IMG/VR virus record: IMGVR_UViG_2609459825_000013
Span: 1-6,374 of that record
DNA length: 6,374 bases
Strand: one strand, 5' to 3'
Origin: a virus
Taxonomy: Monodnaviria; Loebvirae; Hofneiviricota; Faserviricetes; Tubulavirales; Inoviridae
In this document: positions 4,123 to 4,548 of the stretch, piece after piece
Position numbering within the stretch: the stretch's first letter is position 1
Layout: each line of letters starts with the position of its first letter
Notes under the pieces: model-generated
The model's input: only the letters and a program-made list of their open reading frames with translations
Database searches by the model: none
Told to the model about the DNA's origin: nothing
Position numbers and translations under genes: made by a program

Positions 4123-4548
4123 ATGAATCAAATTTACGACAGTTTTCCGTTTCCTTCCCCTGAGGGTTTTACCTCAGGCATGACAATGGCGGGATATTTT
4201 ATTCACGCCACTGTCATAAATGATGAGGAGTTAAAACCCACGGGTTCTCATTATAACCCTGAGGCTAAACCCAAATATGCCATTGTTATTGCCTATCCGT
4301 ATGAGGACCGAAAATTAAAAGTCCGCCGTGAGGAGCATGAGCGATTTTCCTGTACTGAGGAGGATTTTAAATTTTTTAATTCATGTCCTGATTTGCAGGG
4401 CAAACCTGTTTATCTCACGGTGGATGTTAACTCATGGTCGACAGGCTCAGAACGTCATGGTGTCTGGTATCGTTTTATTTCCGGCTCCATGAAACGTTTT
4501 GACGGTCAGCCGCTGGGTGCACTGCCCGCAGGTAAAGAAAAAGGCTGA
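4123..4548 (+). CDS. 141-aa protein in the gene V position; candidate ssDNA-binding protein (pV / RstB positional analogue)
   Basis: ATG at 4123 with GAGGAG (4110-4115) upstream; sits directly after rep and before the minor coat genes. Short motif LQGKPVYL is reminiscent of f1 pV RQGKPYSL, which is weak evidence. It is larger than Ff pV (87 aa) and closer to CTXphi RstB in size. Confidence 0.6.
   Translation: MNQIYDSFPFPSPEGFTSGMTMAGYFIHATVINDEELKPTGSHYNPEAKPKYAIVIAYPYEDRKLKVRREEHERFSCTEEDFKFFNSCPDLQGKPVYLTVDVNSWSTGSERHGVWYRFISGSMKRFDGQPLGALPAGKEKG

Follow-up and report, generated by a model that had tools for sequence, protein, structure and literature searches.

To our knowledge, every filamentous phage studied needs a protein that coats its genome. 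In the Ff phages (M13, fd and f1) this protein is pV (PF02303, Phage_DNA_bind), whose gene follows the replication gene and precedes the coat genes. Here we describe a gene in the same position in a 6,374-base stretch of DNA (IMG/VR record IMGVR_UViG_2609459825_000013, positions 1 to 6,374; hereafter the window) that holds most of a filamentous (Inoviridae-type) prophage genome. The gene, at 4123-4548 on the + strand, encodes a protein of 141 residues whose expected job is that of pV, namely the coating of the + strand for packaging, and both proteins are small, cytoplasmic β-barrels of the oligonucleotide/oligosaccharide-binding (OB) type, as far as the 141-residue protein can be judged from its predicted structure. 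We consider it likely that this gene encodes the phage's own single-stranded DNA (ssDNA)-binding protein, a functional counterpart of Ff pV with an SSB/PriB-like OB domain.

Other filamentous phages fill the gene V slot differently. RstB of CTXphi and ORF112 of VGJphi, the latter annotated as a putative ssDNA-binding protein, hold the same place after the replication protein (Rep) in filamentous phages that integrate at dif via XerCD, and RstB is reported to act in CTXphi integration. They differ from the 141-residue protein in belonging to another sequence family, in their length of 112-119 residues and in their partner Rep, which is RstA-like and not P2 gpA-like. The gene 5 protein of Pf1 is nearly equal in size (144 residues), has no sequence relationship to the 141-residue protein and itself belongs to no Pfam family. 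In lifestyle and layout the window prophage matches YpfPhi of Yersinia pestis and CUS-1 of Escherichia coli K1, tandem filamentous prophages at dif with a two-gene replication module (YPO2274-YPO2275), in which dif is reconstituted at the right end and the phage genome carries inverted XerC/XerD sites (PMC4266046). No Yersinia proteins were found among the homologues of the 141-residue protein, and no CUS-1-like DNA was recognised among the matches listed. Finally, proteins of the family PF17426 (Putative_G5P) have been reported beside Rep_1 genes on small rolling-circle replicons (PMC10378824), a likeness to the 141-residue family, which also accompanies a rolling-circle Rep.

A conserved gene in the gene V slot

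The gene, its ribosome-binding site and the parts of its product are arranged as follows.

4110..4115, + strand: Shine-Dalgarno GAGGAG, read off the sequence, 7 nucleotides (nt) 5' of the ATG
4123..4548, + strand: coding sequence of the 141-residue protein, a predicted OB-fold ssDNA-binding protein (ATG start, 141 codons, TGA at 4546-4548)
4123..4179, + strand: residues 1-19, an N-terminal extension that precedes the OB core, with a mean predicted local distance difference test score (pLDDT) of ~61 and no regular secondary structure
4180..4497, + strand: predicted OB-fold core, residues 20-125, from the secondary structure of the AlphaFold2 (AF2) model
4393..4416, + strand: LQGKPVYL, residues 91-98, at the start of β4 in the model, after the helix
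4498..4545, + strand: C-terminal tail, residues 126-141, from the alignment; pLDDT drops to 38-57

The gene has a strong ribosome-binding site, and its start is unambiguous, given the spacing of GAGGAG and an in-frame stop four codons upstream of the ATG at 4123. An identical coding sequence is present in RefSeq for E. coli strain 100416 (WP_032179869.1, 'hypothetical protein'), the exact protein occurs on 696 contigs, and all named members of its cluster carry the label 'hypothetical protein [Escherichia coli]'; the corresponding PHROGs entry is phrog_30648, function unknown. The ratio of nonsynonymous to synonymous substitution rates (dN/dS, Nei-Gojobori) against eight IMG/VR orthologues was 0.04-0.31, with values of 0.11-0.14 in the more diverged, informative pairs. 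The open reading frame (ORF) is a real gene under purifying selection. It begins 30 nt after the stop codon of Rep, and the following ORF begins 5 nt past its TGA, so that the gene is part of a closely spaced operon, in which it holds the gene V position. This is where the original prediction, made by a model from the letters and their ORFs, had placed it, and the small membrane and coat genes that follow agree with that placement. No signal peptide or membrane segment was found in the 141-residue protein, whose highest 19-residue hydropathy is 0.74.

The family is small. Out of 5.8 billion clusters, 17 were recovered by a single-sequence search and 23 by a profile, and an exhaustive HMMER profile search of 1.84 billion proteins identified only 9 representatives; one scan of genome contigs, made for taxonomic range, returned no relatives. 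Of 5426 complete E. coli genomes, 48 carry the gene, at 122 places, and the Rep gene likewise occurs in 48, at 124 places. Three distant members (P0023, P0020 and P0027), which share 25-37% identity with the 141-residue protein, are encoded 3' of a Phage_GPA Rep and 5' of coat, DUF2523 (pVI-like) and Zot genes. The order of Rep followed by the family gene is the same in loci L002, L004 and L005, with a short ORF of 57-69 residues separating the two in two of the three distant loci. The position of the gene has thus been conserved though nearly all other sequence has changed.

In a further distant relative (L003; ena:ERZ26167708 ctg181230, 1153-5326) an IS21-type element with rve transposase and IstB splits the Phage_GPA Rep, and the 131-residue family member 3' of the interrupted Rep stays intact. 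Further along this contig lies another filamentous element, whose Rep is of the Rep_trans type.

A predicted OB fold with conserved aromatic and basic residues

The AF2 model built from an alignment of 21 sequences, including seven added distant members, has a pLDDT of 78.3 and a predicted template modelling score (pTM) of 0.68, and the blocks 21-30 and 51-100 average a pLDDT of 90-92. Its order of elements, β1-β2-β3-α-β4-β5, is the classical OB topology: β1 spans residues 20-31, β2 52-62, β3 67-77, the helix 79-86 and β4 95-101, and β5 starts at ~114. The β4-β5 loop (102-113) is flexible, with low confidence at 105-110. In a Foldseek search of the PDB the top 35 matches were nearly all SSB or PriB (E from 2e-3, probabilities 0.94-1.00), and a search of the viral models in BFVD returned phage SSBs, one of them from OH3, a filamentous phage of Thermus. 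On this predicted structure, the guess of an ssDNA-binding protein, which the original prediction had drawn from gene position, is favoured, since an OB fold is predicted and the nearest structures belong to ssDNA-binding proteins. With SSB and PriB the model shares a helix between β3 and β4, at 3-14% identity in structural alignments; the acidic C-terminal tip with which SSB recruits its partner proteins is missing in the 141-residue family, whose tails are instead Lys-rich (GKEKG, KDVKQ, NKK, DSKTK).

The conserved residues of the family are chiefly aromatic, basic or glycine. F16, G24, F26, K51, V96, W105 and G113 are invariant in the 21 sequences, and G15, K49, A57, P59, K64, C77, W115, Y116, R125, D127, G128 and L131 are nearly so. 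The N-terminal extension carries the conserved residues D6, G15 and F16, the β4-β5 loop holds W105, and β5 has W115 and Y116; towards the C terminus, residues 125-131 form a conserved RFDGxPL motif, after which the protein ends in a Lys-rich stretch. Judged from the model, many of the conserved aromatic and basic residues appear to map to β1, β2, β5 and the β4-β5 loop. SSB-type OB folds use such aromatic and basic surfaces for base stacking and phosphate contacts.

The protein had been described as about 60% larger than Ff pV, which is correct (141 versus 87 residues), but its size is not exceptional: with 144 residues in the Pf1 gene 5 protein and 112 in VGJphi ORF112, 141 residues lie within the known range. 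The length beyond pV comes from four parts, namely residues 1-19, the β1-β2 connection (32-51), the helix and the C-terminal tail.

Sequence comparison with known ssDNA-binding proteins

Profile searches recovered the expected families from control proteins (M13 pV against PF02303, E = 1.3e-42; VGJphi ORF112 against DUF1293, E = 7.9e-44; both Pfam). PF02303 matched neither the 141-residue protein in Pfam (E ≤ 1) nor any of 16 family members (E ≤ 5), and DUF1293 (PF06950) matched none of these 16 members at E ≤ 5. Comparison of the 21-sequence alignment with five RstB/ORF112-type proteins by hhalign gave a probability of 0.65%, and with the Pf1 gene 5 protein one of 0.4%. A search of NCBIfam with the 141-residue protein returned nothing, and the SSB profile (PF00436) gave no Pfam, NCBIfam or PDB-sequence match for the family. 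Equivalence to RstB by descent, RstB being the CTXphi counterpart named in the original prediction, is therefore not supported, and neither is descent from pV.

The segment LQGKPVYL had been singled out as a short pV-like motif. It is indeed present at residues 91-98, but we regard its likeness to pV as a chance match. The tetrapeptide QGKP is common to M13 pV, and the BLASTP E-value of 0.39, from a single comparison, is due to QGKP alone; about 10% of shuffled 141-residue proteins share some exact 4-mer with pV. The distant members read ISEQPVYI, LHGHPVYL and YENQPVQI at this position, and conservation within the segment is limited, across the family, to G93 (at least 90%) and V96 (invariant). 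The segment stands at the start of β4 in the model, and QGKPY of pV sits in the DNA-binding hairpin.

One sub-threshold Pfam match was obtained, to PF17426 (13.6 bits against a gathering threshold of 25, E = 0.075). It places residues 85-122 on positions 65-102 of the 108-position profile, an arrangement collinear with an OB core beginning at residue 20. The match recurs in 8 of the 16 family members (best E = 0.006). In a rescan of eight distant members together with P0012 and P0016, only P0012 (E. coli, 56% identical) matched. We take the match as a hint from sequence and not as established homology of the family to PF17426. Matches to papain-like peptidases (phmmer and hmmsearch against PDB sequences, over an NSW...GxWY motif) were also sub-threshold. 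They place residues 94-124 of the query on cruzain 133-161 and residues 67-129 on the NSW region of aminopeptidase C, and were judged to be chance, as these registers are inconsistent and 141 residues are too short for a papain fold.

Weighing the assignment

An ssDNA-binding protein is the best reading of the 141-residue protein because of its position, its coupling to a rolling-circle Rep, its cytoplasmic nature and its predicted fold. Several observations weigh against it. No characterised ssDNA-binding protein is linked to the family by sequence in Pfam, NCBIfam, PDB sequences or 1.84 billion representatives, and the PF17426 matches, being confined to E. coli-type relatives, do not constitute independent evidence. 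A first AlphaFold model, from 14 close sequences, failed (pLDDT 41.6), so that the good model leans on a shallow alignment. Furthermore, the computed isoelectric point of the protein is 6.1, thus mildly acidic, compared with 9.2 for pV.

The family gene always adjoins and co-occurs with a Phage_GPA Rep, and PriB proteins score about equal to SSBs in the fold searches. Both observations would suit a Rep accessory factor with an OB fold, which would resemble PriB or belong in some other way to the replisome or origin machinery and would be needed for rolling-circle replication itself rather than for the coating and packaging of the + strand. Adjacency to Rep, however, is equally expected from plain inheritance of the replication module. 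In Ff, Pf1 and VGJphi the gene V slot encodes the genome-coating protein that filamentous phages need, and neither the window nor the complete annotation of the prophage shows another evident candidate for it, which makes a dedicated Rep cofactor quite unlikely in our view.

Integration at dif and the folded attP

The window prophage integrates at E. coli dif. Megablast locates the element in E. coli chromosomes, and strain 100416 has two copies in tandem, flanked by hipA on one side and by degraded fimbrial genes on the other (L001, NZ_CM128593.1 2415868-2436799), with the chromosomal dif rebuilt at the right end of the tandem prophage. At the left junction host GGTGCGCATAA is followed by phage sequence, the junction between the tandem copies is the phage site, and at the right junction phage AGTGCGCATAA is followed by host TGTATATTATGTTAAAT; within this locus the junctions are found at 1560-1592, 10299-10331 and 19038-19065. 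As ssDNA, window positions 1175-1272 (+) fold into a long forked hairpin (folding free energy -40.4 kcal/mol, z -11 versus shuffles), which contains two recombinase-site arms.

1177-1187, + strand: XerC-like arm AGTGCGCATAA, pairing with its inverted partner in the hairpin
1199-1209, + strand: XerD-like arm TTATGTTGAAA, pairing with its inverted partner in the hairpin

The centre between the XerC and XerD arms is unpaired, in a manner resembling CTXphi attP(+). The junctions fit the pattern expected of CTXphi-type XerCD integration of a folded + strand, with strand exchange immediately past the XerC arm.

The inner stem of the attP hairpin (1209-1246, +; AAAAGGCCGCTGCG...CGCAGCGGCCTTTTT) resembles an intrinsic terminator just 3' of the secretin gene, and the hairpin may serve both integration and termination. 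In other E. coli genomes up to 11 places carry the Rep and 141-residue protein genes. Some of these are far apart, as at about 2.42 Mb and 3.29 Mb in NZ_CP035860.1; with such widely spaced chromosomal copies, perhaps not every prophage copy is at dif. Searches of 50,697 phage records by tblastn and megablast gave no match.

Because the phage carries a CTXphi-style folded ssDNA attP, a part of the 141-residue protein in integration deserves consideration: by analogy, an ssDNA-binding protein could influence the XerCD integration step. In its strongest form this would make the protein an ssDNA binder that acts chiefly in XerCD integration, stabilising or presenting the attP(+) hairpin beside or instead of packaging. 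Such a role would agree with the paired XerC/XerD-like arms of 1175-1272, with the crossover just past the XerC arm at dif and with the annotation of RstB in the same slot of CTX-type phages. It is purely analogical, nothing in the sequence favouring hairpin-specific recognition, and the proteins are not related to RstB in sequence (DUF1293 unmatched, hhalign as above), so that we hold it to be very unlikely. That the protein does not bind nucleic acid at all, either because the barrel binds another ligand, as in cargo resembling the B subunit of AB5 toxins, or because the model is wrong and the family unrelated, for example a papain-like fragment, is most improbable, given that it lacks a signal peptide, that its gene lies in the replication module and not in the cargo region across divergent phages, and that the peptidase matches fail on score, register and length.

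A proposed model for ssDNA coating

For an ssDNA-binding protein of the pV kind, what we infer is ssDNA binding, cooperativity, an oligomeric state and a switch from replication to packaging. By analogy with Ff, the 141-residue protein would be expressed together with the gpA-type Rep from one rightward operon and would build up during rolling-circle replication. It would coat the displaced + strand via F26, K49, K51, W105, W115, Y116 and R125, and by this coating it would keep the + strand from being turned into double-stranded DNA again. Zot/pI and the pIV secretin, as the machinery of assembly at the membrane, would then receive the coated genome, and there the 141-residue protein would give way to the coat protein.

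It is conceivable, if rather unlikely, that filamentous phages with a P2-gpA-type Rep gained an OB protein resembling SSB and PriB, independently of the lineages of pV and RstB, and that this protein has a dual role. In that event it would coat the + strand and, in addition, spare the attP(+) hairpin or present it to XerCD, and in this way would settle whether virions are produced or the phage integrates at dif.

Organization of the prophage around the gene

The remaining features of the window are as follows.

65-1123, + strand: pIV-type secretin, C-terminal 352 codons (Pfam Secretin, E = 6.5e-25; PHROG 'protein IV of M13')
1495-1710, - strand: repressor-like ORF of 71 codons, divergent from Rep (phrog_2503, function unknown, E = 1.5e-27)
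1845-2090, + strand: ORF of 81 codons directly 5' of Rep (phrog_3104, function unknown, E = 4.7e-5), unannotated in RefSeq
2092..4092, + strand: P2 gpA-type rolling-circle replication endonuclease, Rep (Pfam Phage_GPA, E = 1.2e-48; RefSeq 'replication endonuclease')
3' of the gene for the 141-residue protein, + strand: two very small hydrophobic ORFs
about 4880-5123, + strand: candidate major coat protein (weak PHROG match only, E = 0.005)
3' of the candidate coat gene, + strand: pIII-like protein with a long Gly/Ser linker

The ORF at 1495-1710 (-) occupies the slot of an RstR/YPO2273-type repressor. The divergent intergenic region beside it (1711-1844) is AT-rich, with a G+C fraction of ~0.35-0.38, and probably contains the promoters. 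The ORF at 1845-2090 overlaps the extended reading frame of Rep; the distant relative L002 has ORFs of 59-67 residues at this place, and the ORF may be a genuine regulatory or accessory gene. At the other end of the window, a 78-nt tandem repeat in the pIII-like gene (5792-6362, +; 6.6 copies, 97% matches) encodes the Gly/Ser linker, and the G+C fraction climbs to 0.68 across it. An ORF of 215 codons on the opposite strand (5704-6351, -) was rejected as an artefact of this repeat.

Implications for filamentous phages

By this comparison, at least four families without detectable mutual similarity appear to occupy the gene V slot, namely pV, the Pf1 gene 5 protein, RstB/DUF1293 and the 141-residue family. 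They appear to share a job and, in the two cases with a known or predicted fold (pV and the 141-residue family), an OB-type barrel. General concepts are unchanged by a protein of expected function from a small unannotated family. A probable function is nevertheless given to a protein so far listed as 'hypothetical', or under phrog_30648 as of unknown function; about 1% of complete E. coli genomes carry its gene, and many of these come from human samples. For dif-integrating phages with a lifestyle like that of YpfPhi and CTXphi, the 141-residue protein is a candidate controller of the fate of ssDNA.
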